This document shows, piece after piece, positions 7,494-62,117 of a stretch of DNA of 64,000 bases. Source of the DNA: Callorhinchus milii (Eukaryota). Both the position numbers and the translations under genes were made by a program. The stretch is from NCBI RefSeq assembly GCF_018977255.1, contig NW_024704765.1:9300001-9364000 (forward strand), read 5' to 3'. Numbering within the stretch: position 1 is the stretch's first letter; the number at the start of each line of letters is the position of its first letter. The notes below the pieces were generated by a model. The model saw only the letters and a list, made by a program, of their open reading frames with translations. It ran no database searches and was not told where the DNA came from.

Positions 7494-7617
7494 GTATATA
7501 TAACGCGCGCACACAACATGCTGCATGAGAGAGAACTGGAGACAGAGCACAGAAAGCGGGAGAGAGCGAACTCACCTGCCAGCAACACCCAGACACTCCC
7601 TCACTACCCCGATCCAG
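7494..7617 (+). promoter_or_regulatory. TATA box and probable non-coding exon 1 of the osteocrin-like gene
   Basis: GTATATATAA lies at 7494-7503. A donor CAG|GTGAGA follows 7617, and acceptor AGs at 7709/7717 precede the ATG at 7720. Confidence 0.55.
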
Positions 7618-7719
7618 GTGAGATAAAATTTATTTCCTTCTTTCCTTTCTTCCGATGTCTCAGTGCATTCTGTCAGTGTTTGAGTCTGATTGCAGTCGCC
7701 TCTCTTTAGTTTTGCAGCA

Positions 7720-9137
7720 ATGTGTCTAAAGTGCTGGGTCGTGCCTGTACTGGCTGCTCTATTCCTTCCGCAGGGCTCCCCAAAAGCAGTCCCCCTGGAT
7801 GCACTTAAACAGGTAAGTCACGGCAAGATTTCTGCCTTTCTGTGTTCCATATTTCCACACGTGTACCTATTCCTTCCCTCCTTCATTTCCTTCTGTTTCC
7901 TTTTTTATACTTCCATGTTCCAATTTAAATTCAGATGTGGAGCAATGCCTTTCACTAATCGCCAGCCACGTGCATTCGCCCACAAAACACACAGTCATTA
8001 CACTTTACACAAACCCAGTGAAGCCGGTTTAAGTTCTTGATGTTATAACAACAACAACAAATTATGTTACACTCACGTTGGAAGAATGTCCCAAGGCGCT
8101 GGACATGAAGGATTTGCTTTCGAGCTAGGGGTTGGGATCACGAAGGATGGAGAACGGGGAGGGTAGGGGTAAGAGGGGGAATAAAGACACGGTCGAAGAC
8201 AAAGGTCTCGAGGTGGGCTTTGAAGGAGGCAAGAGAGAGGCAAAGAGACTGGGATGGAATTCCAATGGGTGGGGGAAGAAAGGATGAATGCAGAATGTTT
8301 CTGATGGTGGGTGGGCAGAGCAGGGGACATGGAACAGGCCTGATGCTGTATTAAATACAGGGATTAGTATTATTCTCTTGTTCTGCAGCTGGTGGAGTTA
8401 GTGGTTGCTGAGGAGGTCCTGGGTGGGATATCTCCTGCAGGAAGGGTCGAGTCAGACAGCTTGGGTTTCGTGGAAGAATTGGACTCCTCGATGGAAGACG
8501 GATTGAAGATCGGAATGGAGCAGAAGAGGAGTTTCCCCAACTTTGGTCTGCCTCTTGACAACCTGTCTGTGTGGCAAGCCAGAAACAAACAGAGGTAACT
8601 GTGACTTTGCCGTGCTTAACCCTTTCCCACCCTACACTCTTTCTGAGAACTTACCCTCAACAGGACCTTTCACATGGGCAGTGTGTAACATTTTACATGG
8701 CATTCATAAAGTAAACCAGAACCGTAATTTAGAATGGAGCCAGTACAGCAGAACAAGAGGATGCAGGTTTAGAGTTGCAAAGGGACAATTTCAGTTCAAG
8801 CAGTAGGAAGTTTTTCTTTATCCAGTGACAAATCAACAACTGGATAATCAACGTTGCTGGGAAGGGTGGTTGAGACCCGGACACTGGGACTCATTTAAAG
8901 AATAGCTTAGGGTGGGTGTGCTAGAAGGATGAGATCAGATGGGTTGAAGAGACGGGTGGAGGGGAAAGAATTGGTGGGAAAGCTCCCAGAGAAAAAATAG
9001 CCTCTTATTACAATTCCGATGAATGTTCTTCCCAAATTTGTTTCTGCAGAAGCTTCCCGCAGATTCCCAAGCCGCGGTTTTCCGCGCCTCTGGACAGAAT
9101 AGGGAGTTCCCGGCTCTCCTCCCAACGCCTCGCCTAA
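7720..9137 (+). CDS. Osteocrin/musclin-like prepro-hormone (128 aa), probable OSTN paralogue
   Basis: Exons 7720-7812, 8389-8594 and 9050-9137 (GT-AG, phases 0 and 2) give MCLKCWVVPVLAALFLPQGSPKAVPLDALKQ|LVELVVAEEVLGGISPAGRVESDSLGFVEELDSSMEDGLKIGMEQKRSFPNFGLPLDNLSVWQARNKQR|SFPQIPKPRFSAPLDRIGSSRLSSQRLA*. It has a signal peptide, an acidic pro-region, a KR site and two natriuretic-peptide-like motifs. Compare human OSTN KKKRSFSGFGSPLDRLS...PKRRFGIPMDRIGRNRLS. Confidence 0.9.
8045..8340 (-). mobile_element. L2-type LINE 3' fragment in intron of the osteocrin-like gene
   Basis: Reverse complement resembles the L2 end at 31560-31812 (WNSIP..., gcgccttgggacatt, (caa)n tail). Confidence 0.65.
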
Positions 9138-10484
9138 TGCCAAGTGCCGCCCGGGGTGACCCTCCTTGAGACGTAAGAGAAACGAAGATGTGTTGTGAAG
9201 ATTTCTCTGTGACTGGAACTCGCTCGGGCAAGTAGCTGGGGGATGGGGATGGGATGGGGGTTGGGGGATGAGGAGGAGACAGCCCGGTCGGTGTGCACCA
9301 GCAGTTGTGTGTTGTCTGTTGTTGCATTCTCTCTGTCTGCGTGCAGGGTTTTGTTGTGTTATTTACTGCAAGAGAGAGAGGCCTGAAAGGAACTGCGTTT
9401 ATGTGTTTGCAAGATAATAAATATTGGGGGGAAGGGTTGGCGGAGGGTGGGGGAGGGGTGAGTGCGCATGAGTATGGGACGTGACTTTGTGTTCTGCATC
9501 GGTTTCTGTGCCAACCGGGCAAGATTGGTTGCCACGGTGACTGTCTCCATGTTGGATACCCCCTCTCTTCTCCCCTCCTCTACACATACTGTTCACCTGT
9601 TCACCTGTTCAAAGTCACAGCATGAAGGTGATTTCAGTGGCTTCATTAAAAAAAGCATAATTGTTTTTATTTGGGGGAGATTGTGGACTTGACTGTTCCC
9701 TTCAAAGGAGCTGTGGTGCTGGAGGAATAAAGGTCTCTTTCAAAGCATCTCTCGTGCCTTGTTTCACTGGTGATGCCTGTGGCTGGAGGGCATAAACTTA
9801 AGATCATCAACAAAAGGGAGAGCGGGGGGTAGTCAGGGGGAATGCTTATTATTACAAACAGAGGATTATCCGGAGATGGAATGACCTACTCCGGTGAACA
9901 TTAATGATCCCGTGGCGCTATTGGAACAGATACCATCCGTGTGATGATAATGATAGTCCTTACATTTGATATTGTGCCTCATCATTTTGTTGAGACATCT
10001 TCACAGAATATACTGTAAAATGGAGTGACTCTATATTTTGTGGATGAAATGTGGCAGACAACAACAACAACACGATTGCATTTATAGAGCGCCTTTCACT
10101 TCGGGAGGATTGCACACAGCAGTGTCCCACAAACAGTCGTGGATTGAGGGACCAAATTTCATCAGGGTCAGGTGGGGGGAAAGGAGGGAAGAGAGGGGAA
10201 TAGATTCCATGGGGAGAGGAGAAGGGAAAGGCCTGACAGGGGCACGAGTAGAAATAATTTTCCGTTTGAACATAAACCACCAAAAGTGTTTTGCAAAACA
10301 TACAGGGATTTTATTGGTAAGATTGAAACAGAAAAATTAGCAAACACTTTGCCATTATTCTTTAATGCTGCTGCCTTTACTCAGTTCAGGAACACATATA
10401 CTGTATCTTCCAACAGGGCACAAAATAGTAACCGCTCCCTGGGTGGAGGGGGGGAGGTGGGCGCGCAGGAGCACCAGGTGCTCC

Positions 10485-12444
10485 TCAAACGCAGTATTTC
10501 CAGAAACACTCAGAGAAATTGTTGCATTTTCTATATTGTCTCTCCTCCAATCCCATCGGGAAGCTGACCTCGGACCACTGAGATCTCCTCCCGTCCAGGA
10601 TCTGTAGAGAGAGAGAGGGAAATCACATCAGTGTCAACTGCTGTTCAATGCATCTTCTCCGCTCGGTATAAGAGCAAACGACAATAACAACAGCAGCTTG
10701 AGTGAGTGAGTGAGTGTGTGTGTGGTGGGGGGGTAGTGGCAGGAGGGGGGAGCGGAGGCTGGGGGTAGTAGGGGCTGGGATCCTTTTATATTCACCTGAA
10801 TCACATCTTCACAAATTTCCCCAGGTCTGGAAAGGGCACACCCTGCTTATCTAATTTCAGAGAGAACTGGGCACAGGTTGGCAAAAGCCAAAGCTTGAGG
10901 GAATCTCAGAGTGTGTGAAGGGGCACTTGCTGGAGCTTAATCAGCTAAAACCGCTCGGTTTGTTTTGAGAGCAATGTCCAGGAAGCTTCCTGCTGCTTGT
11001 GGACTTGTTAGGGCTTTGGTTTGCAGGGTTAACAGCCACACATCTTACAAACAATGAGTCAAATAAATTTGAGTGGGGGCTTTTTTGTGGTGGGGTGAGG
11101 GTGTAAATTTAGATCTGAAGAGAGGTCTCGGAGTGTCGGGGTGGTGGGGTGTGGATTTGACCTGTGTATTATAATTATATTATTATTAGAAATATAATTA
11201 GCGCCTTGGGACATCCTCCCGATGTGAAAGGCGCTATATAAATGTAATCTTGTTGTTGTTGTTGTGTACATTCACCTCAATGAGATTTCCAGTCGGGGAG
11301 AAACTCTTCCACTTCACACCTGCTGAAAGCAGAGAAAATCAGAGAACCAAACTCAGTGAGAGTCTGGAAGCCGGAGGAGACAACAGCCCTTTGACCACAG
11401 ACATCTGTGGATTCCTACAACGTAGGTTAGAGCACTCGCCTCGCAAGCGAGAGGACCTGGATTCAATTTCCAACCGGGAATTGGGAAACCTTAGGCATTA
11501 TTCCTTACTCCACACGTCTCTGTTTACCTCTGCAATAAGTGGTGTTCCGGCGGTAATAATCCCTCCAAAAATAATTAAATAATCATTAAATCGTCTCCCA
11601 CAAAGTACACAGTCAATCCACTTTACAATGTATTCTGTGAAGTGCTTTGAGACGTCTCGAAAAACAGGGTACCAATGCAAGGATTATTATATTATTATCA
11701 CAGGAGATGAAGGATTGAGTCTGAGGTGCAAATAATACAATAATATTCCAATAATATTCCATTGTAACAAAAGTGGGGTAAAGATTCTTCTTGTTAAGGT
11801 ATAAGCACAATGCCCGTGGGTGGCCAGTAGGTGGCAGTCTTCACATAAACCAGGTTCATTCACATCAATAATTGACCCAACTTCACCCTCAAATAATAGA
11901 ACAAAGTATGGGGTTGGGGGGGGGGGAGTCTATGAAACCTACCGCTCTTGTGGTGACGTTTAGCTTCTTCTCCGGTTCTCGTCAGATCCAGAAGGCTGTT
12001 CCCAAGCAGGATTGCAGGGACGCCGTGGAGGTGGTGAGAGCTCCGCATTCCATCCCTACTCAGCGTCTCCTCACCTCTACTGAAGACTGGAACGAGAGTT
12101 ATGAGGGTGGGGATGCGGGTGGGGTGGGGAGAAGCTGGGAAGGGAGGAGGGAAAGAAAGATACAAGTTTTTTTTAATATAATAACAACAACTTGTATTTA
12201 TATCCCGCCCTTCATGTGGGATAGCGTCTCGGACCACTTGCTTAATAGCAATAATAATCCTTGCATTTTGATAAGCTGTTCCCCTTCTCTCTCCCAACCC
12301 CACCCCACCCCTCGCACTGTCGCTCTTACCTCCTCTGCTGTATTGGGAGTCGGATACAGGAAGGCAGAGGACACCGGGGCGGCAGAACAGCAACGCACCC
12401 AACAACAGCATAAGATCATAACGAGGGGAGACAGAGAGCAGCAT
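10485..12444 (-). CDS. UTS2: Prepro-urotensin II (140 aa)
   Basis: Exons are 12444-12330 (signal peptide MLLSVSPRYDLMLLLGALLFCRPGVLCLPV...), 12086-11943, 11322-11276 and 10601-10485 (ILDGRRSQWSEVSFPMGLEERQYRKCNNFSECFWKYCV*), with phases 1, 1, 0. The CFWKYCV ring preceded by an acidic residue and an NNFS extension matches shark UII (dogfish NNFSDCFWKYCV). Confidence 0.95.
11821..11838 (+). promoter_or_regulatory. CTCF-like motif
   Basis: TGGCCAGTAGGTGGCAGT is a close match to the CTCF core consensus. Confidence 0.5.
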
Positions 12445-12468
12445 GCAGACCCCAAGCGCTCAGCCCAT

Positions 12469-12494
12469 GCCTTTATATAACTGCCTTTATATAG
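12469..12494 (-). promoter_or_regulatory. Tandem TATA boxes upstream of UTS2
   Basis: The minus strand reads CTATATAAAGGCAGTTATATAAAGGC, 25-50 bp upstream of the ATG. Confidence 0.6.
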
Positions 12495-13643
12495 CTGACA
12501 CTCCCACCCCACCCCTCCACTACCACACCATCACCTCCTTACTCACAGGTTCAAGGTTAAAGGATAAAGCAGCTGTCTATTTATTGACGATCAAAACACT
12601 CGAAGTGCAAATGAGTTGCAAGACGTTGTTGTTTCGAAGCAAATTAATACATAAAAAAATCAAATTGACTTTTCTCTGTCAGGCGCTAGTTTAAGAGGAG
12701 ATTTACTGCATGTCACCTTTGTGACGCAGGCGTGATCGAGAGGTTTTGACATGAAATATGGTTATTGTGGAATTAAAAGCCATGTGTTTCATTCTCTCCT
12801 CACCATACACACACACACTCCCTTGCTGGCTTTCTCTGCTCCTCACGATAGGTTTGGAGAAGAGGTTTGGCTCAATTGTTCCTGTACTTCCTAATACCCA
12901 CTGTGCTGTCACTGACTTGGGAGTGTGGATGGACAGTGTAGAGGGAGCTTTACTCCGTCACTAACCCATGCTGTTGCTGGCACTGAACAAACTCTCTGCT
13001 GGAGTGAGTTAAACCGTGGTGACACTCTGGTTACAGTTTACTGTGGGCTCCCTTTTAAACACAACTCCTGTCTATACTACAGCAGCAATAAACATGGTTC
13101 AGGAGCTCGGGGAGGTTTTCTTTGGGATCTTCTTTATATATATAATATATATATATTGGGGATATATATTCGATCCACGACTGTTTGCGGGGACGCTGCT
13201 GTGCGCAATTGGCTGCCGCGTTTCGCCCACAAATATACGGTCAATTCACTTTACAGTCTATTCTGTGAAGCGCTTTGAGACGTCGAGAAGACATGAAAAG
13301 CGCTATATCAAATGCAAGGACTATTATTATTATTTTGTCTCTGGCAATAAAATACCCTGAAGAGAATCTATAAACCAAGCTGGAGGAAATCGAGTTTGAA
13401 ACTTAAGGAGGGAATATTGACCTTTTGCTCTGCCTTGAAATCAAGGCGCCTGGGCGTGTGTGGGTTTCAGTGACATACAGGGTGTTCACAAAGTCGTGTT
13501 ACACCCCCCCCACCCACCCCACCCCAATTCCCGTCCCAGCTGGTGTTTTTTCTTACAACTAATTAGTATTTTCTGTTCAGGGTCCGGCGCAGACCCGACC
13601 TGGGACATCTCCTGACGTGAAAGGCTCCTTACAAATGTCATTT

Positions 13644-13978
13644 GTGGAGTCCTGTAACTCAGTGGTTAGAGCACTCGCTTTGCAAGTGAGAGACCTGAGT
13701 TCAATTCCCGGCAGAGGGCGAAACCTTGGGCAAGTTTCCTTACTCCACACAGAGCCTAATAATAATCCCTCCAAAACAAAAAACAATAATAAATTGGTCA
13801 TTTTCAACCCACGACTGTTTGTGGGACATTGCTGTGCGCAATTGGCTGCCGCGTTCGCCCACAAATATACAGTCAATTCACTTTACAGTGTGTTCTGTGA
13901 AGCGCTTTGGGACGTCCTCCTGACGTGAAAAGCGCTATATCAAATGCAAGGATTATTATTATTATTATTATTATTATT
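13644..13978 (+). mobile_element. Full-length tRNA-derived SINE with Deu-like core and L2-like tail
   Basis: tRNA head with A box and B box (GAGTTCAATTCC), core gtgggacattgctgtgcgcaattggctgccgcgtt, tail gcgctatatcaaatgcaagg(att)n. Near-identical copies lie at 35088 and 37901. Confidence 0.9.
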
Positions 13979-14901
13979 TGTATTGTGATTTTTGTTACGG
14001 TAACAACCACTCTTCAATCCCACTGTCTCGCCTGCAGTGAACGCAAACAGCCACCGGGCGGCAGTGTGTCAGCCCCAAGAAACCACGAGAACTTTTCAAT
14101 CTTTCACAGTAAAAATAAATAATAATAAGTAAAAAAGGGAATCTGATGCAATCAGGAGAGGAGAGAGGGAGCGCAGTGCTGGGGGGGGGTGGAGCGATGC
14201 ATCGTCAGAGGCGCCGTCCTTCAGACGAGACGTTAAACCAAGTTCCCGTCTGCGCCCGTTCAGTTAAAGATTCGGCGATGCTGTTGGGAAAAGAGGAGGC
14301 AAATTTTCTCTCCCGGTGTCCTGGCCGACAATCCCCCAGATAGATCACCTGTTCACTTTAAGGCTGTGTGTGTGGGGGGGTGGGGGGGGGGTGGAGTTGA
14401 GGTACAGATCAGCCATGATTTAATAGAATGGCGGAACAGGCTCGAGGGGCTGAATAGCCCAGGCCTGTTCCTACATTCCTATGATCTCTGACTGTATCAA
14501 ATGCGAGAGTTATTATTATTCATCGTCTTGTCTACTGTTTCTTCCCGCCACCCCCAACCCCCCCCCCCCCCTCCCTTCCCTCTCCCCCATTAACTCACTT
14601 TGCATGTCAGACAACATGCCTGAGGTCGGGAGTTTATTTGTTCTGCTTGTGGGAATTTCTGTGCTATTTTAGCAGCGTTCCAAGCGCTCCAAATTGCATC
14701 CTGTGGGAGGGAAGGGAAAGGACGGAGGAAGGAGCGATTCCCTTGCGGCAGTGTTCCGGCACATTCCGGATGAAGCGGAGTGGTTATAATGGGAGAAGTT
14801 GATTTCCTCCGCTGGACACGTTGCTCAGCCTCAAGGGGGTTCGAGCCATGATCCCAGCAACTCCCGTTACACACCCTGAGACGACAAATCCCATCCTTCA
14901 C

Positions 14902-14932
<31 letters not shown>

Positions 14933-16419
14933 TGCGCGTGTGTCAGTAGCATGTTCGAGTGTGGAGACGGGGGAGAGGGTTGAGGGAAGAGACATCACAT
15001 GTGAGCCTCGATCCTGCACTCAGCCGATGTGTGTCCACACGGCGCTTAATAACACGCACACATGTACACATACAAGCACAAACACATGCTCACATGCAAG
15101 CACACACACATGTGTAGGCTGCCTAGGGAGACGGTGTAAGCAGGAAGTGTCGATTCTTTTAAGAACAAAGTAAATGGATTTCTGTTCGGAAACAATATCT
15201 CGGGCGGGATACCGTATATAGTTTAGTTGATGTGCAACTGACTGGATGGACCTTGGTCCTCTTTCGGCCTCAGCAAAATTTCTTATGTTTTTATCCACAT
15301 GCCCACAAACATAGGCACGCGCACACGTACTTTTAAGAGATTTTTTAATTTCCGCCAGACATTCAACAACAACAACTTGCATTTACATAGGTCCCCTCAT
15401 GCAGGGTAGAGCCCCACAGCGCTTGAGAGTGGAGGAGCACGACCCCGAGCCTGTGTGGGGGGGGGGGGGGGGGAGAAGGGGGGAAATGACCAAAGGGAGG
15501 TGGTCGAAGAGGAATGTCTTCGTTGACCAGCTCTCTGTAAACCTGGCCGCTCACCCACATACCACACGGGATGGTTGCCAGTGGGTGACAAAAAGGCTTT
15601 TGTGTGCCAGGGTTTGGCTCGCGATCCACACATACACACACCCACCCCCCACACACAAACACCCCCNNNNNNNNNNNNNNNNNNNNNNNNNNNNNNNNNN
15701 NNNNNNNNNNNNNNNNNNNNNNNNNNNNNNNNNNNNNNNNNNNNNNNNNNNNNNNNNNNNNNNNNNNNNNNNNNNNNNNNNNNNNNNNNNNNNNNNNNNN
15801 NNNNNNNNNNNGTGGAGCCAAACACACACACACACACACAGAAAAAAACAGCATAAAGAGAGAACGAGCGAATAAAGAGAAGGGAGAGAAAAGAAGGGGG
15901 GAATAAACTGAGAGAGAATAAGGCACTCAACAGCCAATGCAGTAGAGGGAGAGAATTAAGGGGAAAGTGAGTTGGAGAGATAGATAGAGGCAGCAGCTCT
16001 CTGAGAGAGTTCTGGACACTTTTTTTTGTCCACATTGTTCCACAAGTTACGACAAACTTTGGTGAGAAGCTGTGGAGTGGGGGAGACAGGGGCTGGAGTG
16101 AGACCATTTATTTCACTTTGTTCAGCTTTTTAATATAAAAAAATGCATGTTTGTGTTTGTGTTGTGGCTGTTGCATGTTTTTTGTGTCTTATTAACTTTC
16201 CTAACTTTTTTCTGACTTGGAAAGTTTTGCTCTTCTCTCTCTCTCTCTCCCCCTCTCTCTCTCAGGCTGTTCCCCCAACACAGTGAGATTCTCTCTGTCT
16301 CTCTCTCTGTCTCGTTTTTTTTAAACTTATTTTTTGAGTGGTTAAAAACGTTTTGGGGCAGTTTTGGGTGTTTTGGGGGTGAATGGCTGGGACAGACTTT
16401 TCCCATTGTCTGAATCCCG

Positions 16420-17160
16420 TGTCTCTGTTCCTTTGTATGTGTGTGTCTCTGTATCTGTATCTGTGTGTGTGTGTGTCTCTGTATCTGTGTCTCTGTATCT
16501 GTGTGTGTGTGTCTCTGTATCTGTGTATCTGTATCTGTGTGTGTGTGTGTCTCTATTTGTATCTGTGTGTGTGTGTCTCTGTATCTGTATCTGTGTCTCT
16601 GTATCTGTGTGTGTGTGTCTCTGTATCTGTGTATCTGTATCTGTGTGTGTGTGTGTCTCTATTTGTATCTGTGTGTGTGTGTCTCTGTATCTGTGTCTCT
16701 GTATCTGTGTGTGTGTGACTTTGTATCTGTATCTCTGTGTGTGTGTGTGTGTCTGTATATGTGTCTGTAACTCTGTGTGTGTGTGTCTTTGTATCTGTAT
16801 CCGTGTGTGTGTGTGTCCATATCTGTCTGTATCTCTGTATGTATCTGTGTCTGTATCTGTGTGTGTCTGTATCTGTGTCTGTATGTGTGTGTCTTTGTAT
16901 CTGTGTCTGTATCTCTGTGTGTGTGTGTGTGTGTATTTGTATCTGTGTATGTGTGTATGCATATATATATATGCGTGTATGTGTTTGTATCTACCTGTGT
17001 ATGTTTGTGCCTGTGTGTCTGTCTGTGTGTTTGTTTGTGTCTCTCTGTGTGTGTGTATATGTTTGTGTGTTCAAGTGCTCTGGGAGGCTACCCTGCCTGA
17101 GGGGTGCTATATAAATGCAAGTTGTTGTTGTTGTGTTTGTGTGTGTTTACGTGTGTGTGT
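16420..17160. repeat. Compound (TG)n/TCTGTA microsatellite array
   Basis: About 700 bp of repeated tctgtatctgtgtgtgtg-like units. Confidence 0.95.
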
Positions 17161-17411
17161 AATCGGTGTGTTGGTGCCTGAAAGGAGAGCAAGTAATGTG
17201 TAATGAATTGCACTGATTAATGACATTGAATCCCATCAGCAAATTTTTCAGGAGTTTTTAAATTCAGATTTTTTTTTTGTTGGAGTCCCAGCAGGGCTCA
17301 GGTCCCGATCCCCGCTTTAAACCTTCCTCCCGCTGCATTTTTATTTCATATTATTTTCCTTTTCTTCCAGAGTTGCTCGGAGCATGTGCGCCGAGGTTTG
17401 ACGCGAGAGCA

Positions 17412-20400
17412 ATGGCTGAGATCGCGATCGATCAGTCCCGACTGCCGCGGGTTCAGGAGGGTAAGATACAGGAAACGTTCAGCCCCGTGGGGGGAGTGCG
17501 GGGGTCATGATATTCTCAAGAACTTTCTCTTCGACTGCGCCTTGGGTCATCTTCCACCACCTGCCCCCCCGTCCCAAATACCCACACCTCTCTTGACTGC
17601 AGACCGCAGCTCGGGGCATCCTCCTGAGGCGAAGGGCACTGCGTAAATGCAATTTGTTGTTGTTGTGTTCCTATCACTGTTACCCTCAGCCCCCACCCGA
17701 AACCTCATCCCGGCGCTCTCTTCCGTGTCCCTTAATCTTTTTGCGGCTCTGTTGCTTATCCAGTTTCCATCTGAACGATTCAAGCTGCCAGCCTGCAGTC
17801 CAAGTCTCTGAGTCAGACAGATGGTTGTGGGTTCGAGCCCCACTGATTCTCCAGCGCAGTGCTGGGGGGAGAGAGTGGGGGGAGCACTGAATTGGGTGAA
17901 TTATTAAACCCAGGTCCTATCTGTGCCTCTCTAGCTCACAGTGGTCAGTCTCTAACTGTGAAGGAACTGCTCTGTCTCTTTGTCTCTGTCTCTCATTCCT
18001 TCTCTCCTTGTCTCTCCCTCACACCCCCTCGATTTTTTTCCCTCCCCCTCTATTAGGATGTGGGCAGTGTGTAATGTCTGCTTGCAAGCCACAAATTGTC
18101 GGCTGGGCACGAGTGTGACTAAATTTCCTGGTTTCCTCACAACCTCTATTTAGAAGTGTCCATCACCGCAGTGGAGGATGGAGCTGAGCCGTGCTCCACC
18201 CCAGGGATTACTTTCATGGCTCCACAACGTTTTTGACACAACAAAATCCCCCCACCCCCCTGCCCTCCACACTAGGCATTCCGTGGAAACAGGAGGAGGC
18301 CATTCAGCCCCTCGAGACCTGTTCCGACATTCTATAAAATCATGGCTGATCTGTACCTCAAGCGCTCTGGGAGGCTCCCATGCATGAGAGGCGCTATATA
18401 AATGCAAGTTGTTGTTATTTATTGCTTGCCATCTGCCTCCCCCTCCCTTTGGTTAAGTCAGAGTCTTCTTTGGGGTGGGTGGGGGGAAGCAGAAGGATAA
18501 ATTGGCTTGGTGATGCTCTGGGTGTTATGTGGTCTGACCCCTGAACGTGTCTTCTCTCTCTCTCTCTCGTGTGTGTACAGTGTGCCGGGGATTCGCGTTG
18601 CTGGAGGATGGAGCCCTGGCCCACAGTCTCCAGGAGCAGGAGAGTAAGTGAGGACCCACCTAAACCCCCCACCCCACCCCCCCACCACTCTGGTCTCAGC
18701 CACTTTGGGGGCCTGTGTGACGCAGACCGTAAGCGCTCTGTCACGTAGCGTAGCGGTTAGAGCACTTACCTCGCATGCAAGAGGATCCGGGTGCGATTCC
18801 CGGGCAGCGCAAATTCTTAGGTAAGTTTCCTTACTCCACACGCCTCTGCATACCTAGCAGTATGCACGCACCCAGCCAGTAAACGCGGGTCCCCACGTAC
18901 GAACTCGGGCAGTGACTGTCGGTGCCGTGTTGCTGTTGCAGTTGAACAACATTACGCCTCCAACGTCCAGAAGAGCCAGCTGGTGCGGCAGGACGTGCGA
19001 GTGGCCAAGATCCTACAGGACCAGGAGGAGCGCCAGGCACGGAGTCACAGCCGCGAGGAGCAGAGCAGGCAGGTCCCACTCCCCGGGGGGTGTGCGTGTG
19101 AGTAGGGTGGGTTGTTAAGCGCCCCCACCCCCCCCTATGCTCCCCTCCCTGCGACTTGAAAGACCTTCCTTTTCGACCTTGCTTATGGCCACCCCCTCCC
19201 TTCCACACACACGCAAACCCCCACCTGGCTCCCGTACGCTGCCCCATCTGAATGCCGCTGTGTAAATGCTATTTGTTTTTGACGCTGTGTCTGGGGGAGT
19301 GGTGGGGTTTGACACTGCGTTGGGGGTGGTGGTTGGGCTGTGCCGGGGAGTGGGGGGGGAAGCTGGTAGGGGGGCGTTTGATGCTGTTTCTGAGTTGGTT
19401 TGATGGTGTGCTGGGGGGGGAGGCTTGGGGTTGTGTTTGAGGGGGTAAATGGGGCATGTGCTTGTTTGAGGGGGTGATGGTGGGGGGACAATGGGGGTGG
19501 GGTGGGTGGGGAGACTGACGCTGTGTACTGAGGCGGGATGGTGTTGTGTGTGTGCGCAGGGAGGAGCAGGACTCTCAGTATGCCCGGGCCGTGCAGGAGG
19601 AGATTCACAGCCGAGCAACTGAGCGGCATCGGCGGGAGGAGGAGGACAAGGTAGGGCTGTGGAGGGTGTTGGTGGGGGGGGTGTGTCTCTCTCTCTCTCT
19701 CTCCTCACCACCCTCTCTCATCTCTGCCAACTCTGTCTGAAACGTCTCATTAAAACCAGATCAACCATTTCTCTAATGAGCTCCCCCCCACAGTGACTAG
19801 CAGATGTGGAGAAATATCACTGTGTCGAGTTGGGTTTGGTTGAGGGCCGGTCTGAGCCCTGGGATGTCTCCCAGCAAGTGAGGTGAAGTGCCTTCCCACC
19901 CCCTACCTTCTCCTCCCACCCCCACCCACCACACCGATTCCTGTGGCTGGCAGTAAATATGAGAGCTGAGTGTGGGGGGGGGGAAACGGATAAGAGGAAG
20001 GCGAAAGCTAAGCACGGTGCCAGCCTGCAAAAGGTTGCTCGGAAAAATACCCATCTTTTTGCCAAGAACAATCTGGGCTGATCCACCGTTTCCATCGAGT
20101 GCAGACAACACGCCAGTCTGTTTATATATAACACCCGCTCCAGGGCAGGTTCCTGCAGACTCCCAGCCCCGGCCAACAGCTCACACTGAGGCAAACTCTC
20201 ATCATCATAATAAGCCACGTGTTTGACACTGTGTGAGAGAGAAAAAGACGGAGCGAGCGAGACAGGGGAGGGGGAGAGAGAGAGACTGAGAAAGCCCTGC
20301 AGTGTCAGAGATGTTGTCCTTTGAGACCATCTGGGCTCCATGTCCAATGCAGGGGGGCAGGCAGGCGTGTGCACTTGCGGGCGTATGTGTGTGAGCGCGT

Positions 20401-23400
20401 GTCTGTGCGCGTGTTCCTGTGCAGGTCTGAGTGACCACGGGTTTCTCCCACCTCCTTCCCCCCCACTTCGGATTAATTACAGATGTTAAATGCGTGGCTA
20501 GACCTGGCAGAGCCCTCACGGTGCCTGACACCAGGTGCGTGTGTGTGGAGGGGGGGAGGCAAGGGATTTAATTGTCTTGGCTCCTTTACGAGCTGGTTTT
20601 ACTGCAGATGAGACGTGCGGCTGAGTCTGATTTATGGCTCGACAGTCAAGACAGAGACGGGCAGGTCTGAGACGCTCACACAGTGCAATGTGAGACAAGG
20701 TTTCACAGTTACGCTGACTTTGGCTGTTTCAACTCCCTGACCAGACAGTCCTGGATAGTGCAGCATCTTCTCCATCTCTCCTGTTTTCCTTTTTCTATTT
20801 TTTTTCTTTTTCTCTCTCTCGATTCCTCTCTTTATTTCTTTTTCTCTCTCTCTCTCTTTCTCTCACATACCATCGAAGGGCGATGGCTGTAACCTTCTCA
20901 CTTTGAAGTACGTACCCTCCCAGCTGGTAAACGTGCCTCTGATTACAGAAAATGTGCAAAACAGCCTGAGACTGAGTTAAAAAAACAGCAAACTGTTCTG
21001 ATAATTAATATTAGGGGAAAAAAAACACACACGCAGACAGTGGCTTTAATGAGCTGCAGGTTGAGGCTGAGTGTGAGGGGTCTATGGAATCAGTAGGGGA
21101 GATGGTTAGTGGCACAAGGTACTGGTTGGGGGGAGACTGACCCCCCTATCCAACCCGCTCTGATCACGCACACCCCAGAGCTCAGAATGCTCTGGGGCTC
21201 TACCCTGCATGGAGGGCGCTATATAAATGCAAGTTGTGGTTGTTGGTTTCCTCTGTGGATTCACAGCAGCTCAGACCAAAGGGTATGGGGGCGAGGGGGC
21301 TAAGGGAACGATGGGGGAGGGAGGGGTAAGGGAGAGAGAGAGACAGACACAGAGAGAGAGAGAGAGAGAGAGAAAAACGAAGGGGGAAAATTTATCCCAT
21401 CAGCCTGAGCTGGATTAAGCCTCGCTCCCCAGCAAGTGGGTGCCGTTTGGTGGTTTGAGCCCAGGCAGCTGGTGACACAGACACGGGAAAGTCGCGCACT
21501 TTACAAAGGAGTTAATTAATTTTTTTTCCTCCCACTTTCGTCCTGCCACTCCCAAACTCTCCGTCTCTGGTCTAATATTACCGCACAGCCCGGGGCTCAG
21601 TCCAGCCTGCCCTACCGCAACTCACTAAACACAGTTAATATTCCGTTCCAAAACAAAGACATGTGAGACGACTGATTTAGACGTCTCAAAGCGCTTCACA
21701 AGATACACTTGTCAAGCGGATTCACTCTATATTTTGTGGGCAAAACAAGGCAGCCAGTTGGGCACAGCAGAGTATCCCACAAAGAGTGGTGGATCAAGTG
21801 ACGAATTTGATTTCATCGTTGGCCAGGACACCGGAGAGAAACTCCCTTCTCTTTCCGATTGGGAAAAATTCCATTTGAATGAGTAGTGTCACAACGTCCA
21901 CCTGAACAGACAAACAGCGCTGTGTTCGCGCTGACAGGGTGCGCCAAGCTTGGCCGCGAGCTCAAACATCGCAGTTCCGCCTGCACGACTGCACAGACTG
22001 CACAGACTGCACATCTGCACAGACTGCACATCTGCTCACCACTGTACCATCGCACTAACCCTCCTCGCTGGGGGCAGGAACAACAAATGCCCAACAAATC
22101 CCAACAAATCCCCCACCCCACCCCCCCAAATAAAATTGGTCACTCGCTCCACGGCCGTCTGTGGGACACTGCCGCGCGCACCAGCTGCCGCGTTTCGCCC
22201 GCGAGGTGCACGTGTCAACCCCCTTTACGGCATATTCTGCGAAGGGCTGCGCGACGTCTCGGCGCCGCGGTCGGGGGCGGCTTCGGACCTCCGGGATTCT
22301 GATTGTGTGCTCTGCGTTGCTGGAGTGTGACCGGCGAAGGCTGTGGAGCGTTGGCGCCCTCCTGTGGGCAACCGCGCAGAGAGCGACGAGCTGCCCTGTC
22401 TCGCTCGGGCAGCTTCCCGGCACGGCTACCGAGCGGAGGCTCGTGTCCCACCAAAACACTAAGGGGGTGGGGGGAGGGGGGGAAGTTGCACTGTAACTCT
22501 CCGCCAACTCTCCTCTGTCTGTCCGTCTCGGTAACGAGTGACTAATTTCACGCCTCGCAATTGCAGGAAATAGCCCGCAGACTCCAGGAAGAGGAGGAGC
22601 TGCGGAGGCGGGAGGAGGAGGGGCAGGAGGATGCCCTGCCCCCGCCCGCCGAGGAGGTTCACAGTGAGCTCGGGGGCGGGGCAGGTGAGCGGTGGGGCGG
22701 GGTATGCAGGAGATGGGGTGGGGCAAGCCGGGAGGGGGTGGGTGGGGGGGGCGCGGGGACTGGGAAGGTGAGCGGGGGAGCGGGGCAAGTGAGAAGGGGG
22801 CGAGGTAGGTGGCAGAGATGGGGGCGGGGCAAGCAGGGGCGGGGCAAGTCAGTGTGGGGGTGTATGGGAGGTGGACTTGCTCAGTGTGTTTGGGCTACAG
22901 TGACCGATGACCTGTTTCTCTGGTGGGCAGGGATCGGGGCGTGGTCTCTGGAGAGGGGCACAGCCAGACTCGGGATCCGGGACCCTCAGCACGGGGAGCA
23001 GCTGCCGGAGACGGAGGGGCTGCGGGGGGACGAGGAGCTGGCCAGGCACTTACAGCAGGAGGAGGAGACACGGCTCGAACAAATGGTCCGTCCGCAAAAC
23101 CTTCCGCCCCCACCCCCCCCCACCCCCCCAGGACGAGAGCATGACTGATCGACGGGCGCGGTGGGATTGTTCGCTGTGGGGCATGTAATTTCCGCCTCTC
23201 ATTCCCAACCCACATCCACGTTTCGCCTACAAAATGCACGGTCACTCCACTTTATATTATATTCTGCGAAGCGCTTTGAGACGTCTCAACGACGTGATAA
23301 GGGGCCGCATCAAATGCAAGGAATATTATTATTATTATGGTTGTAACTGTGTAACTAATTGCCTTTTACAGCAATCACAGAGTCAGAAGAGCCGGGAAGA

Positions 23401-25164
23401 AGATTTCCGAGTGGCACAAGTGGCCCAGGACGAGGTAACGTGTGGCTGGACAGGACGAGTGTGTAGGGTGGGGTGGGGTGGGGGGATGTTGTCGTGACTG
23501 TGGTGACCGATGGCTGGCCTCTGCTGCAGGAGATTGCTCGCTTTATCCAGCGTCAGGAGCTGAAAGCTCAGAAACAGGCGGAGGAGGCCGGCACCGACTA
23601 CGAGAGGACCTGCCATCGCGACGGAGTCCGGGAGAAACGGGTGAGAGGCCAGGGTGGGGGGGAGGGGAGAGGTGGGGGCTGAGGGAAGGCCGGTGTGGGG
23701 GGAGAGGCTGTGGGAGGGGTGGCTGGGAGAGGCTGTACATAAGAATTGCTAGACAAGAGAAGACCAAAGTCCATCCAGTCCACCTTCCACCATCGTAGCA
23801 GAGTGAAAGCTTGCCGGACAGTGATATCAATGGCAAGCTCTGTGGTTTCAGCTGGTTAGACTCGAGCAGTTACCCCAACGCATGCTCTGGGTTCCCCCCC
23901 AAGCCTTGGTTCTTGCCAACCTGCGCTTAAGACTTTCCAGAATTAGGTAAGCAAGGATGCCACAATCTATCTCTGGGATTTCCGTGTCTAGGTGGGATAC
24001 TCTTAAGCACGGTGATGGGTTTCCGCATGTGTCTGGCCGACCCCCAGATAAAAAAAAATCCTGACAGTCTTATGCATGTGTCGTGACCCAAACTATATAT
24101 TGTACTGGACGTTAGGAGACGAGGAGGGTTTGAACATCGAAGGTTGTGTTTTCCTTTGCAGAGCAGCAGGGCAGGGGGCCGGGGGGAGAGGCTGAGATCC
24201 GTAGGGATGGCGAGTGGTGAGTGGACACGCCCAAGAGAGGACACGTCCATGGAGCACGTGCGGAAAGCCAGGTGGGTCCAGCGGATCTGGAACTCTCCCC
24301 CTCCCCCAAAAGGCTGTGGATTATGGGTTGGATCCATTCAAATTTTCCAGACCGAGGTGCATAGATGTTTGTTAGGTCATGGGTATCAAGGGATTGGGGG
24401 CAACGGTGGATCATTGGACTTGAGGTACAGATCAGCCATGATCTAATAGGATGGTGGAACAGGCTCGAGGGGCTGAATGGCCTCCTCCTGTTCCTAGATG
24501 GTTCCATAGTGAACAGTGCCGATCTGCAGCCATCCTGAACTTTGGAATCTGTTCCCATTTTGCAGGCAGCTTTTCCCCAGGAACATCGCCGAGGCCCTGG
24601 ATCCCACCTTCAAAACCCAAAACACAGACGTCTCCCAGCCTGAGCCACACTCTCCTCTCACACCAGGTAACAGCGCTTGCTCCGAGGGGGTGGGGGGAGA
24701 GGATGGAGGGAGGGGCAGGGGGCTGTTATTCTCTACACTTTAACCCCCAATCCACGACTGTTTGTGGGACACTGCTGTGTGCAATTGGCTGCTGCATTTC
24801 ACCCACAAAATACAGTCAATTCACTTTACGACGCAATAAGGCATGCTATAATCAAACCCAAGAATTATTATTATTATTGTTGTGATATAAGCCCTGGAGA
24901 TTGCTGGCTGGAGCTGTTTTGGGGGTGGGGGTGTTCAGTGTGGTGTCAGTGTGTTGCTCACAGACTTCCCCCCCCCCCCCCCCCCGCCACCTCCCTCCCC
25001 TTCTTACAGAGATGTGCGGGTCCTGCCCGGTGCCCCCCGGTGGTCTCTATGACTACATGGACGACAATTCCGAGCCTGAGTTCATCCCCCCCACCCGCCG
25101 TCCCCAGGAGAAGCTCCCGCGGCAAAAATCCAAGGACAAGAAGGAGAGCTGCAAACAGCAGTGA
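17412..25164 (+). CDS. CCDC50 (Ymer)-like coiled-coil/MIU protein, 380 aa, C-terminal CKQQ; probable paralogue
   Basis: Exons are 17412-17460, 18581-18643, 18942-19068 (GC donor), 19560-19650, 22567-22684, 22931-23085, 23372-23434, 23530-23640, 24162-24271, 24566-24666 and 25010-25164 (1143 nt, open frame). The N-terminus [60 protein letters not shown] matches human CCDC50 [47 protein letters not shown]. It has repeated DxExARxLQ MIU-like motifs. Confidence 0.88.
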
Positions 25165-27900: not shown

Positions 27901-30900
27901 TCATACTGTGAGCAAACTGTCCTGAGAAGAGTCTGTGCTATCGTCTCCCAGCTCTTTCACAGGATAGTGACAGCTACAGGCATCATCCTCTGTCTGGGCC
28001 ACAGGGGTATCATCTGTCAATAGGAAACATGGGTTAGGGTTCTAAGTCAACCTTGCGCTGGGGAAACAATAGCACCACCCACACTTGCGCGCACACACTC
28101 GCGTGCACACACTAACTCACACGTACACACACTCACATACACGCATGCACTTACACAGACACACACACACAAACACATGCGCGCACAGACACACGCAAAT
28201 GCACACACACACACATGCTGACTGGTGCCAACTGGTCCTCCCTCACCTTTTTTGGGCATCCTTTTGTGCCGTTTCCTGGTCAAAATCACAGCGAACATGG
28301 TGAACGGGATGAACAGGCACGGCACCAGGAACGCCGCCAGGATTCCTAGAACATTTGCATCCTTTTCCGGATACACTGTACGGAGGAGAGAGAGAGAGGG
28401 TTTGAAGCTGGGAAGGGCTGGATGGAACATGGTCGGTCGGTCGGTCTACTGGTCAGGGCTGTGAGGGGACTGAGATGGAACAGATCCTGTGAATCAACAT
28501 GACCTCAAGAATGGAGTCCCGTAGGGTACTGGTTAGCACGCTCGCCTCGCAAGCGAGAGGACCCGGGTTCGATTCATGGGCAGGGTGAAACGTTGGGCAA
28601 GTTTCCTTACAGGTCTCTGCTTACCCAGCAGTAAGTAGGAACCTGGTTGTTAGTCGATTGATGGATCGTTTTCCAGAGGTAATAATCCCTCCCTCACCCC
28701 CCAATGATCCACTCAATCCACAACTGTTTGCGGACACTGCTGTCAGCAATTGGTTGCCGGGGGGATGGCATTAGAGTAGAGAGCTCCAGTGGTGGGGGGT
28801 GAAGATGTAATGTGAGTAGCAAGATGGAGTGTAAGGTGCAGAGGGGGAGGCTGTACCTTTGAACTGTGGGCTGTGTTGCGGTGTTGTGGAGCTTGTGCTT
28901 GTGCTTGCGGTGTATGTTCTGGCCTGGATGCTCCTGGGAGGAGTTGGACTGCACTCCCTGTCCTGAGTGCTGGAGCCGTTTCTGGTCACAAACATTCCTT
29001 TGGTTGAGCAGCTGGAACCAGAGCAGAAAAAGAGATTAATGCGAGAGCTGGAGAGCTCCCGAGGGGAGGAAGGATCTTTCTGAGCTTGGAGGTTGGTACA
29101 CAGCTACGATTGGGGGGTAGAGAAAGAGAGCAGGGAAGGGGATTGGAGTAGAGAGCTCCAGTGGAGGGAGCGAGCACCAGTACAGACAGGATGCGCTGGT
29201 CTGAATGGCTTTGTTATTGTGACATTAACTTTCCGAATGAGTGCGACAGAGGCCGAGAATATTGCCAGTTACAGTCCTCGCTGTTCATGTTGCTCTTTTA
29301 TGGTAATAATATCACTGCTTCCTCCCCTCTCCCCTCTTCTCCCCCCCCCAACCCCCCCTCCACCGCCAACACACACAGTTTGCACCAAAGCTCATTCACC
29401 TTTTTATAGACATTAAACACGTCATCGGCGACTTCGGAAAATCTAAAGGGACGATTGATTCATCTGAGAGGAGGCGTCTTATCTAATGTGGTTTGAGTGG
29501 TTTGCAGTTTCTCCAATGTGTGTGTGAAAGGCACGGGACCGTTTCATGTTTGCCTCCGCCCGCCTCAGTCTGTACAGTTACAGTAAGCAAGTGAGCCATA
29601 GTCTGAGTGTGTGTCAGAAAGACAGAGAGAGAGAGACACCAACCATCGCTGCTCTCTGTGGGTGGGAGCTAATGGCTCCTGTTGTGGTGGTCGCCGAGAG
29701 GTGGGGGGGAAATTGCCAAGACTGAGCAATGAGGGGGGTTCATGTTGGGGAGAGGGGGAGGGTACACTCAGACAGGGCTGAACATTGGCTCTGACGTGTG
29801 ACCTGTTGTTTCCATCGCGGGTCTGATCCCTGGTGACCTTTTAGTCGGCCACATTTGGTTACTCACACAGTACCCTTTTGGGGCAAAGTGAGCGCTGAAG
29901 GATTTAGATGTCAGCCCGGCCCAGTCTCTCTCGCCTCCAAGTCAAAAGATTGTGGGAGGGGGGAGCACTGTATTGTCGGAGGTGCCATCCTTCAGATGAG
30001 ATGCTAAAGATCCTGCAACACTGTTCAGAAGGAGAAGACCAATTCTCTCTCCCGGTGTCCTGGCCAATAAGCCCTCAGAGAAATATATGTTCTCCGTCTC
30101 TCTGTCTTTATAAAACTAAAGGGCAGAAACAGTCACTGGGGGCAGGGAATCCTCCACCTCAGCTCCTGTTAACCCTGCAAGCCAAAACCCTAACGGGTAG
30201 GGTGGTCCTAGCTGGACAAGCAGCAGGAAAGCTTTGCCAGCCGGTGCTCTCAATGGCAAAGCCGTATGGTTTTAGCCGGTTAGATTCCAGCAGTTCCCCC
30301 ATCGCACACTCTGGGCTCCCCCCAAACCTTGGCTCTCGCCAACTGCGCCTAATACTTTCTGGAATTAGGTAAGCAGGAAGCATCCCTCCAGGGAGAGAGA
30401 GCGCATTCCATTCCAACAATCTCTCTGGGATTTCCATGTGTAGGTGGGATGCCTGGAATTCTCAGCTTAGTTTGGGTACTCTTAAGCACGGTGATGGTTT
30501 TCCGCTTGTGTCAGACCCCCAAGTGACCACGGCAGTGTGCTGAAGGACTGTGTCCATGGTCTTGTTATACCCGATGTGTGAAAATAGCCACTTACTCAGT
30601 CCAAGGTATGCATGGTTCCCCCTCTGTCTTGGAAAAGCTTCCCTCATCACAACCAGTGCACTCGGTATCGGAGTTTGAGGTGCCTGAAAACAGAAGGTGA
30701 TGATGGTCTGGTGAACGTGAGCTCCACTGATGGCACCTCGCCTCGTCTCACGCTGGGCAAACGGACCACGTGAAACCCATGCGGGACTTGGCAAGATGGA
30801 TGGTCAGTGAGTCGGGGACCAAGAGGGCATCAGTTTAACATAGGAAATGTGCAAATAGGAGGCCAGGGAGAGCCAGAAGGTCGTTAAGAGGTAATTGTAC

Positions 30901-31924
30901 TGTTATTAATGCTTCATCTTCCCGAGGGAGCGTCTGCCTGGCCCCTGGTCTGGGAGACAGACTGGGGCATGTGGGATGGAGGTTTGGGTGAGAGATGTTA
31001 CCTTCTTTGACGATCCTTTGACCCGGTAGGCAGGACCGATGGGCCATACACTGATCACAGGCGTCATTGCTGCACATGTAGCCCTGGACACAGCCACACT
31101 TGGTGTTGGAGATGGCCGTACACTGTCGCTCCACTCGGAACTTGCCTGCGATGGACAGAAAAAGAGACTTTGGTTATTCAGAGAGACGAGACAGACGCCC
31201 TGTCTTACCCCCAGCTCCCAAAGCCATCTGTACCATCACACTCGGTGAGTTAGTGTCAAACTCAAAGCATTCAGTCCCACCCGAACTGTGTGTGTGTCAC
31301 ATCCTGTGTACATCAGATACAGCTCCTGTGTTACAGTACATTCTTTGTTCAACTCCTATCATCTGTAAACCCATCACTCCCATCCTCGCCCGGGTCCACT
31401 GGCTCCCCAAGCTCAAAGTCCTCGTGCTCTCTTTCAAAGCCCTCCACGGCCTTGCTCCTCCCAACCTCGGTGACCTGCTAACCCCATACCGGCCTGTCCG
31501 CTCCCTCCTATCAGGCCTGTTCCACGTTCCCCCTCCCTGCCCGCCCCATCACCAGCCTTCAAGCCTCTCTGCCCCCACCCTAGGGAACTCCATCCCAAAG
31601 TCCCTTCGCCTCGCCCCCTCCCTTACCTCCTTCAAGGCACATCTCAAGACCTTCCTCTTCGACCGCTCCTTCGGTCACTCTCCCAACCCCTACCCTCCCC
31701 GCCCTCCTGATCCCAACTCCCCTAGCTCGGGTGCAAATCCCTGCCTGTCTAGCGCCTTGGGACATTCTCCCGACATGAAAGGCGCTGTGTCAGTGTAATT
31801 TGTTGTTGTTGTTGAGACTTACTCCCGAAACATGACTGGCATCGTTGACACCGCCTGAGGTTTTCATCGTTGGAGAAGCTTGTTGCTGGACAGGGTTTGC
31901 ACGTATTTTGAGTCTTATATGTAC
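27901..31924 (-). CDS. TNFRSF9: TNF receptor superfamily member, 4-1BB/TNFRSF9-like (signal-peptide exon not located)
   Basis: Exons are 31924-31823 (CKPCPATSFSNDENLRRCQRCQSC), 31145-31002 (CTAISNTKCGCVQGYMCSNDACDQC), 30683-30596 (CTGCDEGSFSKTEGEPCIPWT), 29011-28857 (DCSTKGMFVTRNGSSTQDRECS plus a S/T stalk), 28375-28247 (TM helix plus RKRHKR) and 28013-27901 (PVAQTEDDACSCHYPVKELG...LLTV*). Phases are consistent. The tail resembles 4-1BB PVQTTQEEDGCSCRFPEEE, and TNFRSF9 neighbours UTS2 in human. Confidence 0.75.
29068..29762 (+). repeat. About 700-bp duplicated segment, copy 1
   Basis: Near-identical to 60072-60833 in the same orientation. Confidence 0.9.
30170..30520. repeat. Unclassified interspersed repeat
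   Basis: The motif ggaattaggtaagcagg...gggatttcc(a/g)tgtgtaggtgggat...cttaagcacggtgatgg recurs at about 23800-24050, 37610-37780, 43990-44110 and 62790-62990. Confidence 0.7.
31355..31812 (+). mobile_element. L2 LINE 3' fragment (ORF2 C-terminus and tail)
   Basis: Translation PITPILARVHWLP..KVLVLSFKALHGLAPPNLGDLLTPYRPVRSL...FKAHLKTFLF is typical of the L2 ORF2 end. It ends in (TGT)n. Confidence 0.85.
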
Positions 31925-61957: not shown

Positions 61958-62117
61958 GTCAGTCAGTCGGTTGGTCGGTCGGTCAGTCTCCGTTCGGACG
62001 TTCGTTCGTTGGGGAGCAAAGGAAATTGAAGGGATTCCACCTTTTGTTTGCTCTGGCAACTGGAGGGACTTCCAGCCGCGCATCCCGTGTCTGTGCCGCT
62101 GCTGGTTTTTCCGAGTG

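Follow-up and report, generated by a model that had tools for sequence, protein, structure and literature searches.

A second osteocrin–urotensin–CCDC50 block at the urotensin II locus of the elephant shark, probably retained from an early vertebrate genome duplication

Human 3q28 carries the osteocrin gene OSTN, the urotensin gene UTS2B and CCDC50 side by side, presumably in the orientation OSTN(+), UTS2B(−), CCDC50(+), and we know of no OSTN or CCDC50 copy at human 1p36. The 64,000-nucleotide window analysed here (contig C24, positions 9,300,001-9,364,000, from Callorhinchus milii, the elephant shark) contains an OSTN-like gene, a UTS2 gene and a CCDC50-like gene in a 1p36-type neighbourhood, raising the question of where this trio came from. 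We consider it very likely that a block with the arrangement PHF13(−)...OSTN(+)/urotensin(−)/CCDC50(+) was duplicated along with its entire chromosome, and that the window represents its 1p36-type copy. The event would have been either of the two genome duplications early in vertebrate history, with the elephant shark keeping both products, on C24 and C11, and the linkage of the three genes would most simply represent inherited gene order.

A first-pass annotation of the window had proposed that the cassette survives complete at the UTS2 locus, and all three genes are indeed there, intact and spliceable to open frames in the +/−/+ order it described. The two peptide genes, which it had placed tail-to-tail about 1.35 kb apart, have stop codons separated by 1,347 bp, and 4,967 bp lie between the UTS2 and CCDC50-like ATGs. 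The OSTN-like gene (+) has three coding exons and encodes 128 aa, while UTS2 (−) has four exons and encodes 140 aa with the urotensin ring at the end; every intron of both genes is GT-AG. The CCDC50-like gene (+) comprises 11 exons between 17412 and 25164 and encodes 380 aa, with nine GT donors and one GC donor. Our OSTN-like model differs at one of 128 residues from the RefSeq protein 'osteocrin-like [Callorhinchus milii]' (P0001), which scores above the cut-off against the Pfam family Musclin (PF11037; E 6e-13, 49.2 bits, cut-off 21). The CCDC50-like model is identical to the RefSeq protein P0012, named 'CCDC187', and scores well above the cut-off against CCDC50_N (PF15295; E 2e-42, 145 bits, cut-off 27).

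Family searches of the genome placed Musclin and CCDC50_N above cut-off at only two places, the window and C11. The C11 triplet consists of OSTN (−, 471139-468867, 136 aa), a urotensin-related peptide (URP) gene (+, 462696-467027, 119 aa) and CCDC50 (−, at ~456-432 kb, first exon not located), with the urotensin gene between the other two; when reversed, it has the order and relative orientation of the window triplet. Both OSTN genes have intron phases 0 and 2, and the lengths of CCDC50 exons 2-4 correspond, at 63/127/91 (window) and 63/130/91 bases (C11). A scan of 100 of the 301 candidate neighbouring segments on C11 identified two head-to-head claudin genes, an ABCF-type gene and a PHD gene, and an SS1-type somatostatin gene lies ~150 kb from the C11 CCDC50. 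Canonical CCDC50, claudin and SST flanks thus accompany the C11 OSTN but not the window OSTN-like gene. Human 3q27.3-q29 is listed as holding OSTN, UTS2D, CCDC50, CLDN1, CLDN16 and SST (PMC5350000, Table 1), and in Xenopus ccdc50 is described as adjoining uts2b (PMC4319907).

Trees were built from 21 whole CCDC50-family proteins and, leaving aside those of coelacanth and monitor lizard as well as an unnamed one, from 18 N-domains; both are unrooted. In both trees, the like-copies, including those of skates, form one side of a 100/100 branch, and the C11 protein falls on the tetrapod side. The CCDC50-like proteins of three skates have N-domains 72-74% identical to that of the window, which is 43-54% identical to every canonical CCDC50, and the C11 protein reaches 74-75% identity with ray CCDC50 and 64-70% with that of tetrapods. 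Judged by its sequence, the window CCDC50-like gene is a paralogue, not an orthologue, of tetrapod CCDC50. In a distance test on the N-domain (14 proteins, 121 columns), the chimaera and batoids were separated by 0.33 in the like-copy and 0.30 in the canonical copy, cartilaginous and tetrapod canonical CCDC50 by 0.44, and like-copy and canonical proteins by 0.78-0.83. The distance between the like-copy and cartilaginous canonical CCDC50 exceeded the cartilaginous-tetrapod distance in 2000 of 2000 bootstraps and, among uniform sites, the C11 type was shared with tetrapods ten times and with the like-copy once. Given that the like-copy and canonical proteins are 0.78 apart despite equal change since the chimaera-batoid split, these comparisons favour a CCDC50 duplication that predates the split of sharks and bony vertebrates.

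These dates also bear on whether the OSTN-like and CCDC50-like genes could be duplicates specific to cartilaginous fish, inserted beside UTS2 and then fast-evolving. Such an origin would agree with the taxonomic range, as named CCDC50-like orthologues were found in three skates only and OSTN-like in this species only, and the unrooted trees leave room for it. However, in the N-domain tree the branch to the like-clade measures 0.60 and the stem of cartilaginous CCDC50 0.043, so that it would need 0.60 changes per site against at most 0.043 on the other copy, followed by equal rates, as well as two insertions flanking UTS2 in a C11-like orientation. We regard this scenario as very improbable.

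The doubling can also be placed relative to the urotensin family. Four urotensin-family genes were found in the genome, on C24 (the window), C11, C4 and C15. Urotensin II (UII) is recognized by an acidic residue before the ring, an extended peptide and the lack of a phase-1 intron just before the ring. The window gene has a C-terminal CFWKYC ring preceded by an acidic residue and an N-terminal extension, and its four exons are joined by introns of phases 1,1,0, while the C11 and C4 genes have five exons (phases 1,1,0,1) and the C15 gene also has a last phase-1 intron before the ring. In its predicted peptide and exon structure, the window gene is UII-type rather than URP. The peptide was not accepted as the sole basis for naming the URPs: that of C11 begins with Val and that of C4 with Ala, but by their neighbours C11 is the URP locus and C4 probably the URP2 locus. 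The scan around the C4 and C15 genes (117 of 175 candidate segments) showed that the former adjoins a RUNX gene and that the latter lies near CLIC, EVA1 and OCRL types; the urp2 neighbours given in PMC8354755 are rcan1, clic6 and gart. No OSTN copy was detected within 100 kb around either gene, and the genome-wide CCDC50 search gave no match at either locus. UII, URP, URP1 and URP2 have been proposed to derive from the two genome doublings (PMC4364556, PMC8354755). The cassette would then be older than the doubling by which UII and URP parted. The first-pass annotation had inferred that it predates the vertebrate genome duplications; the evidence supports this for the UII/URP doubling but does not extend to both.

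The paralogy extends well beyond the three genes. Each triplet has, upstream of its OSTN gene and on the other strand, a PHF13-type gene, oriented alike at the two loci; the distance to OSTN is ~62 kb on C11, and that to OSTN-like is 23 kb on C24. In a PDB search the C11 PHD exon hit PHF13 and PHF23, and its single genome partner, 83% identical, lies at C24:9,284,499 (only two matches at E≤1e-5). Eight of the nine searched families with a C24 member also have a member on C11, which makes up ~2% of the genome: Musclin, urotensin, CCDC50, somatostatin (two genes on each contig), Dishevelled, PHF13, FOXL2-type forkhead and PI3K p110. On C11 the pairs extend over ~0.3-15.6 Mb and on C24 over 2.0-9.8 Mb; among them is a second ordered pair, FOXL2-type(+) then PI3K p110(+), ~55 kb apart on C11 and 46 kb on C24. 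These forkhead genes beside PI3K genes are probably the known foxl3/foxl2b. This extent is what speaks against a smaller-scale origin, in which a segmental duplication independent of the genome doublings copied the small block alone on the jawed-vertebrate stem. The same CCDC50 dating would be expected from such an event, and it would explain why the block is missing at the URP1/URP2 loci, with their RUNX, OCRL, EVA1 and CLIC types of neighbours, but it does not account for pairs spread over megabases of both contigs, including the ordered FOXL2-type/PI3K p110 pair, and we consider it improbable. With a separate, divergent triplet on C11, a CCDC50 split older than that between sharks and tetrapods, and paralogy of C11 and C24 over megabases, the window genes are paralogues and not orthologues of the 3q28 genes, as the first-pass annotation had supposed.

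Some observations weigh against doubling with the whole chromosome. The CCDC50 trees lack an outgroup as well as a root, and the dating presupposes that the like-copy stem saw no large burst of change. Apart from a short repeat-like piece, no non-coding similarity was found between the cassettes. The nine families were chosen from known 1p36/3q pairs, and eight of nine is therefore not a blind count; for the P53 family, only a C24 member was found (TP73, from its best PDB hit), with no counterpart on C11. Searches for OSTN-like orthologues in a 90% collection matched only the query itself (one of 70 and one of 37 candidates), which says little because canonical OSTNs were missed too, and all seven non-self matches of a further search were bony-vertebrate proteins. 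In the mature part, 26-29 of 51-52 residues of the window copy are identical to bony OSTN, compared with 19-22 of 53 for the C11 copy. Finally, the OSTN tree, which also lacks an outgroup, puts both shark copies on long branches and is uninformative, so that OSTN orthology rests on synteny. Of the gene trees that the first-pass annotation had called for, that of CCDC50 separates the window from C11 and tetrapods, but the OSTN tree alone does not settle orthology.

The closer mature peptide is the argument for taking the window OSTN-like gene as the true tetrapod OSTN orthologue, through reciprocal loss or a move. Against this, the C11 OSTN lies beside canonical CCDC50, two claudins and ABCF-type and SS1-type genes, aligns gap-free with its bony-vertebrate counterparts from the pro-region onward, and was the best match of gecko OSTN (E 9e-5, versus 0.97 for the window copy). 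Its pro-region is also the more similar to bony OSTN (9-12 of 30 residues identical, versus 5-7 of 25). An assembly error would be the other way to undo the separation of the loci: no listed run contig spans the whole stretch, and the read placement did not extend to the interval between UTS2 and the CCDC50-like gene. However, no sign of the misassembly envisaged in the first-pass annotation was found, and the divergence between the triplets is far too great for a single locus that had been assembled twice. Either explanation appears to us barely credible, and we retain the view that the block was doubled with its chromosome.

A further question is whether selection has kept the genes together, with the urotensin and osteocrin genes sharing regulation. 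At both loci the two genes lie tail to tail with little DNA between them (stop to stop, 1,347 bp in the window and 1,839 bp on C11), and contigs of both window genes occur in the public run X1, which we guess to be RNA. On the other hand, the two genes have separate TATA-like boxes, their predicted polyA signals are ~580 bp apart, with predicted 3' ends that do not overlap, and the paralogous cassettes share no common non-coding element. Moreover, neighbouring genes also keep their order, so no special cause for the linkage is needed. We therefore regard shared regulation as a minor possibility and inherited gene order as the simpler account.

In the OSTN-like gene, one contig of X1 joins all four exons, indicating a spliced transcript. 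A TATA-like box, presumably functional, lies at 7495..7501 (+), and the non-coding exon 1 of the spliced X1 contig at 7535..7617, its 5' end being approximate, with a GT donor at 7618. Exon 2 (7710..7812, coding 7720-7812) begins the frame at ATG 7720 and encodes the hydrophobic core of a putative signal peptide, a peak at residues 6-16 judged from hydropathy only. Exon 3 (8389..8594) carries the sole dibasic site, KR77-78, and the first natriuretic-like motif, and exon 4 (9050..9137) the second motif and the stop codon; KR77-78 is followed by 50 cysteine-free residues. The probable 3' untranslated region occupies 9138..9731, with polyA-type signals at 9416, 9645 and 9726, and contigs of X1 and X2 (the latter also guessed to be RNA) span 9265-9732 in two pieces. 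A 167-aa RefSeq model of this gene (P0009) was dropped because its upstream ATG is out of frame in the X1 splice form. Compared with seven bony OSTNs, 11-13 of 16 residues are identical in the first motif and 9-13 of 21-22 in the second. Instead of a second multibasic site before the second motif there is a single Arg, and the C11 copy differs here too. The Phe and Arg of the second motif matter for binding; the window has FSAPLDRIG, frog and gecko FGIPLDRIG, and C11 PSVPLDQIG. At C11:468,867-468,951, the second motif of the 3q28-type OSTN has diverged, and the window copy keeps it better. The ESM Atlas leads for OSTN-like were an Osteocrin cluster (0.96) and an unnamed cluster of 85 chordate members, 40% Musclin (0.95), while a search against PDB gave no meaningful match.

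UTS2 is encoded on the minus strand. Its exon 1 (12330..12444), with the ATG and the hydrophobic core of a predicted signal peptide, lies below two putative TATA-like boxes (12473..12493) and is followed by exon 2 (11943..12086), exon 3 (11276..11322; picked by its GT-AG ends and open frame, without read support) and exon 4 (10485..10601), which encodes the urotensin II peptide; a probable polyA signal lies at 10310..10315. A second X1 contig ends at the acceptor of the last exon. The precursor has an RK and an RxxR site directly followed by a Cys (codon 10524-10526, −), and cleavage after either basic residue would likely leave a third, unpaired Cys in mature urotensin II. The codon is unchanged in three runs from two studies, which are all the runs covering it, and so is not an assembly slip. 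Elsewhere in the family, the peptide at C15:5,047,208-5,048,109 begins with Thr after a likely splice, and that at C4:1,128,325-1,132,588 ends straight after the residue behind the ring.

Exons 1-4 of the CCDC50-like gene (17412-17460, 18581-18643, 18942-19068 and 19560-19650, +) encode the CCDC50_N domain. The GC donor, at 19069-19070 in intron 3, follows exon 3, and the RefSeq protein implies the same junction. Exons 5-8 (22567-22684, 22931-23085, 23372-23434 and 23530-23640) and 9-11 (24162-24271, 24566-24666 and 25010-25164) form the part 22567..25164, which encodes further MIU-like helices; the protein has five matches to the MIU-like helix pattern and ends in a basic stretch and CKQQ (25150-25164, +). 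Among 121 family proteins longer than 250 aa, eight end in CKQQ, all within the like-group of ten, whose other two members are alternative models of the window gene; none of the remaining 111 has a Cys four residues from the end. The ending is kept in the three skates and was not seen in the canonical CCDC50 proteins compared. RefSeq calls this protein 'CCDC187' in two species and 'CCDC50-like' in two, and the ESM Atlas leads include a 'CCDC50-like' cluster of 114 members and a 'CCDC187' cluster of 69, the latter with the CCDC50_N domain. The ccdc187 genes of fish may represent this CCDC50 paralogue. For the C11 CCDC50 protein, PDB gave no match.

The surroundings of the window triplet were read from the 40 best-scoring flanking segments, 14 of which, chosen by us, were searched. 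Upstream lie BTB-zinc-finger, Kelch, PHD and DNAJC11 genes, and downstream a TNF receptor, an Ima1/TMEM201-type gene, a forkhead gene and PIK3CD. The BTB-zinc-finger, Kelch, PHD, DNAJC11, Ima1 and PIK3CD genes fall within 140 kb and TP73 at 0.8 Mb; PIK3CD and TP73 were named by best PDB hits. Within the window, the first coding exon of the BTB-zinc-finger gene (2411..3379, −; Pfam BTB), which we take to be ZBTB48, precedes the triplet, and a TNF-receptor gene with approximate exons (28247..33987, −), TNFRSF9-type by position, follows it, its top PDB hits being ELR1 and CD40, with TNFRSF9 next. Further downstream is a partial Ima1_N gene (46352..61958, +), presumably TMEM201-type. Given the human 1p36 positions of these genes, the neighbourhood is of the 1p36 type. 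At C24:9,392,715-9,393,518 (L096), a single-exon FOXL2-type forkhead gene precedes PIK3CD, a pairing also seen on C11. About 600-700 bases appear by eye to be near-identical, in the same orientation, between 29127-29755 in the TNF-receptor gene and 60127-60838 in the TMEM201-type gene.

What these genes do can be suggested by analogy. Osteocrin is described as a specific NPR-C ligand limiting CNP clearance (PMC9219612). The OSTN-like protein, presumably secreted, would likewise bind this clearance receptor: it is likely that the precursor is cut at KR77-78 to give a linear 50-residue peptide that binds NPR-C and raises local natriuretic peptide. UTS2 would give cyclic urotensin II. CCDC50 has been reported as an autophagy receptor for damaged lysosomes (PMC12786279), and CKQQ as farnesylated in LKB1, Nap1L1 and Pex19 (PMC10320760). 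Somewhat less securely, the motifs of the CCDC50-like protein point to a ubiquitin-binding adaptor, probably membrane-held via farnesyl on CKQQ.

A broader scheme, which we offer tentatively and think less likely than not to hold as a whole, would make osteocrin an ancient duplicate family tied to PHF13/23-type genes at 3q28-type, 1p36-type and perhaps 17p13-type loci. The 1p36 copy, with Phe and DRIG kept, would be the working NPR-C ligand in the elephant shark, the 3q28 orthologue, with Phe and Arg lost, would have changed role, and a free-cysteine urotensin II and a farnesylated CCDC50 would stand beside the 1p36 copy. No third OSTN was found in the genome: the Pfam search scored four candidates and that with gecko OSTN three, and only C11 and C24 match, as they did when a local profile was run over 17,764 open segments (C11, C4, C15, C1368, locus L005 and the window). 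One OSTN gene is described in a cichlid (PMC4992253). Looking for a DVL2-type locus, we arrived at C1368, a contig of 14.9 kb without any OSTN-like match; it bears a Dishevelled-like piece (L080, L081), looks unlike host DNA and is a possible contaminant. No TP63, TP53 or clear DVL2 was found in the genome family searches, and the 17p13-type chromosome may be poorly assembled. At C11:528.8-533.6 kb (L027, L028), a PHF13/PHF23-type gene occurs on the 3q-type chromosome, a probable further duplicate; we know of no human PHF13/PHF23-type counterpart on 3q.

The OSTN-like and CCDC50-like genes very likely represent additions to known families, retained since an early genome doubling, and these copies appear to be missing in humans. 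In a literature search that covered mostly titles and the beginnings of abstracts of the top-ranked entries, we found nothing on a second osteocrin or on a CCDC50 at the UTS2 locus; published synteny figures may already show them. The locus allows the ancestral gene order surrounding the urotensin genes to be viewed directly, and OSTN, CCDC50 and PHF13 join the gene pairs marking the 1p36/3q28 duplication. A vertebrate that lacks bone is also seen to possess a second osteocrin-type hormone, and since the putative receptor-binding motif is not the same in its two osteocrins, they should be informative on the role of osteocrin before bone. The label CCDC187 on a CCDC50 paralogue is, moreover, a database naming problem. 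The surprise is limited, because the UII/URP duplication is published, automatic models of the genes exist, and retained duplicates seem common in this genome.

In comparison with known systems, the window has the same three families, order and orientation as the tetrapod 3q28 OSTN-UTS2B-CCDC50 block and shares OSTN intron phases and matching CCDC50 exon sizes with its orthologue on C11. It differs in a middle gene that is UII-type and not URP-type, in its 1p36-type neighbours, and in OSTN-like and CCDC50-like genes that are divergent paralogues, the CCDC50 N-domain being 51% identical to the C11 copy. With osteocrin/musclin, the OSTN-like protein shares a predicted signal peptide, a KR-SF site, a 50-residue cysteine-free tail and two natriuretic-like motifs, but it has one dibasic site, a single Arg before the second motif, no C-terminal RG, and a pro-region only ~20-28% identical to that of bony OSTN. 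The CCDC50-like protein shares the CCDC50_N domain and repeated MIU-like helices with CCDC50/Ymer, but forms its own clade with the skates and has a different C-terminal third, ending in CKQQ. Within the UII/URP/URP1/URP2 quartet, window UTS2 stands apart by the Cys behind its basic pair. The SS1/SS2 and SS3/SS6 somatostatin pairs of cartilaginous fish, as described in bioRxiv 10.1101/823187, lie on the same two chromosomes here as the OSTN and CCDC50 pairs; the somatostatin pairs are published, whereas we did not find the OSTN and CCDC50 pairs in the literature surveyed.

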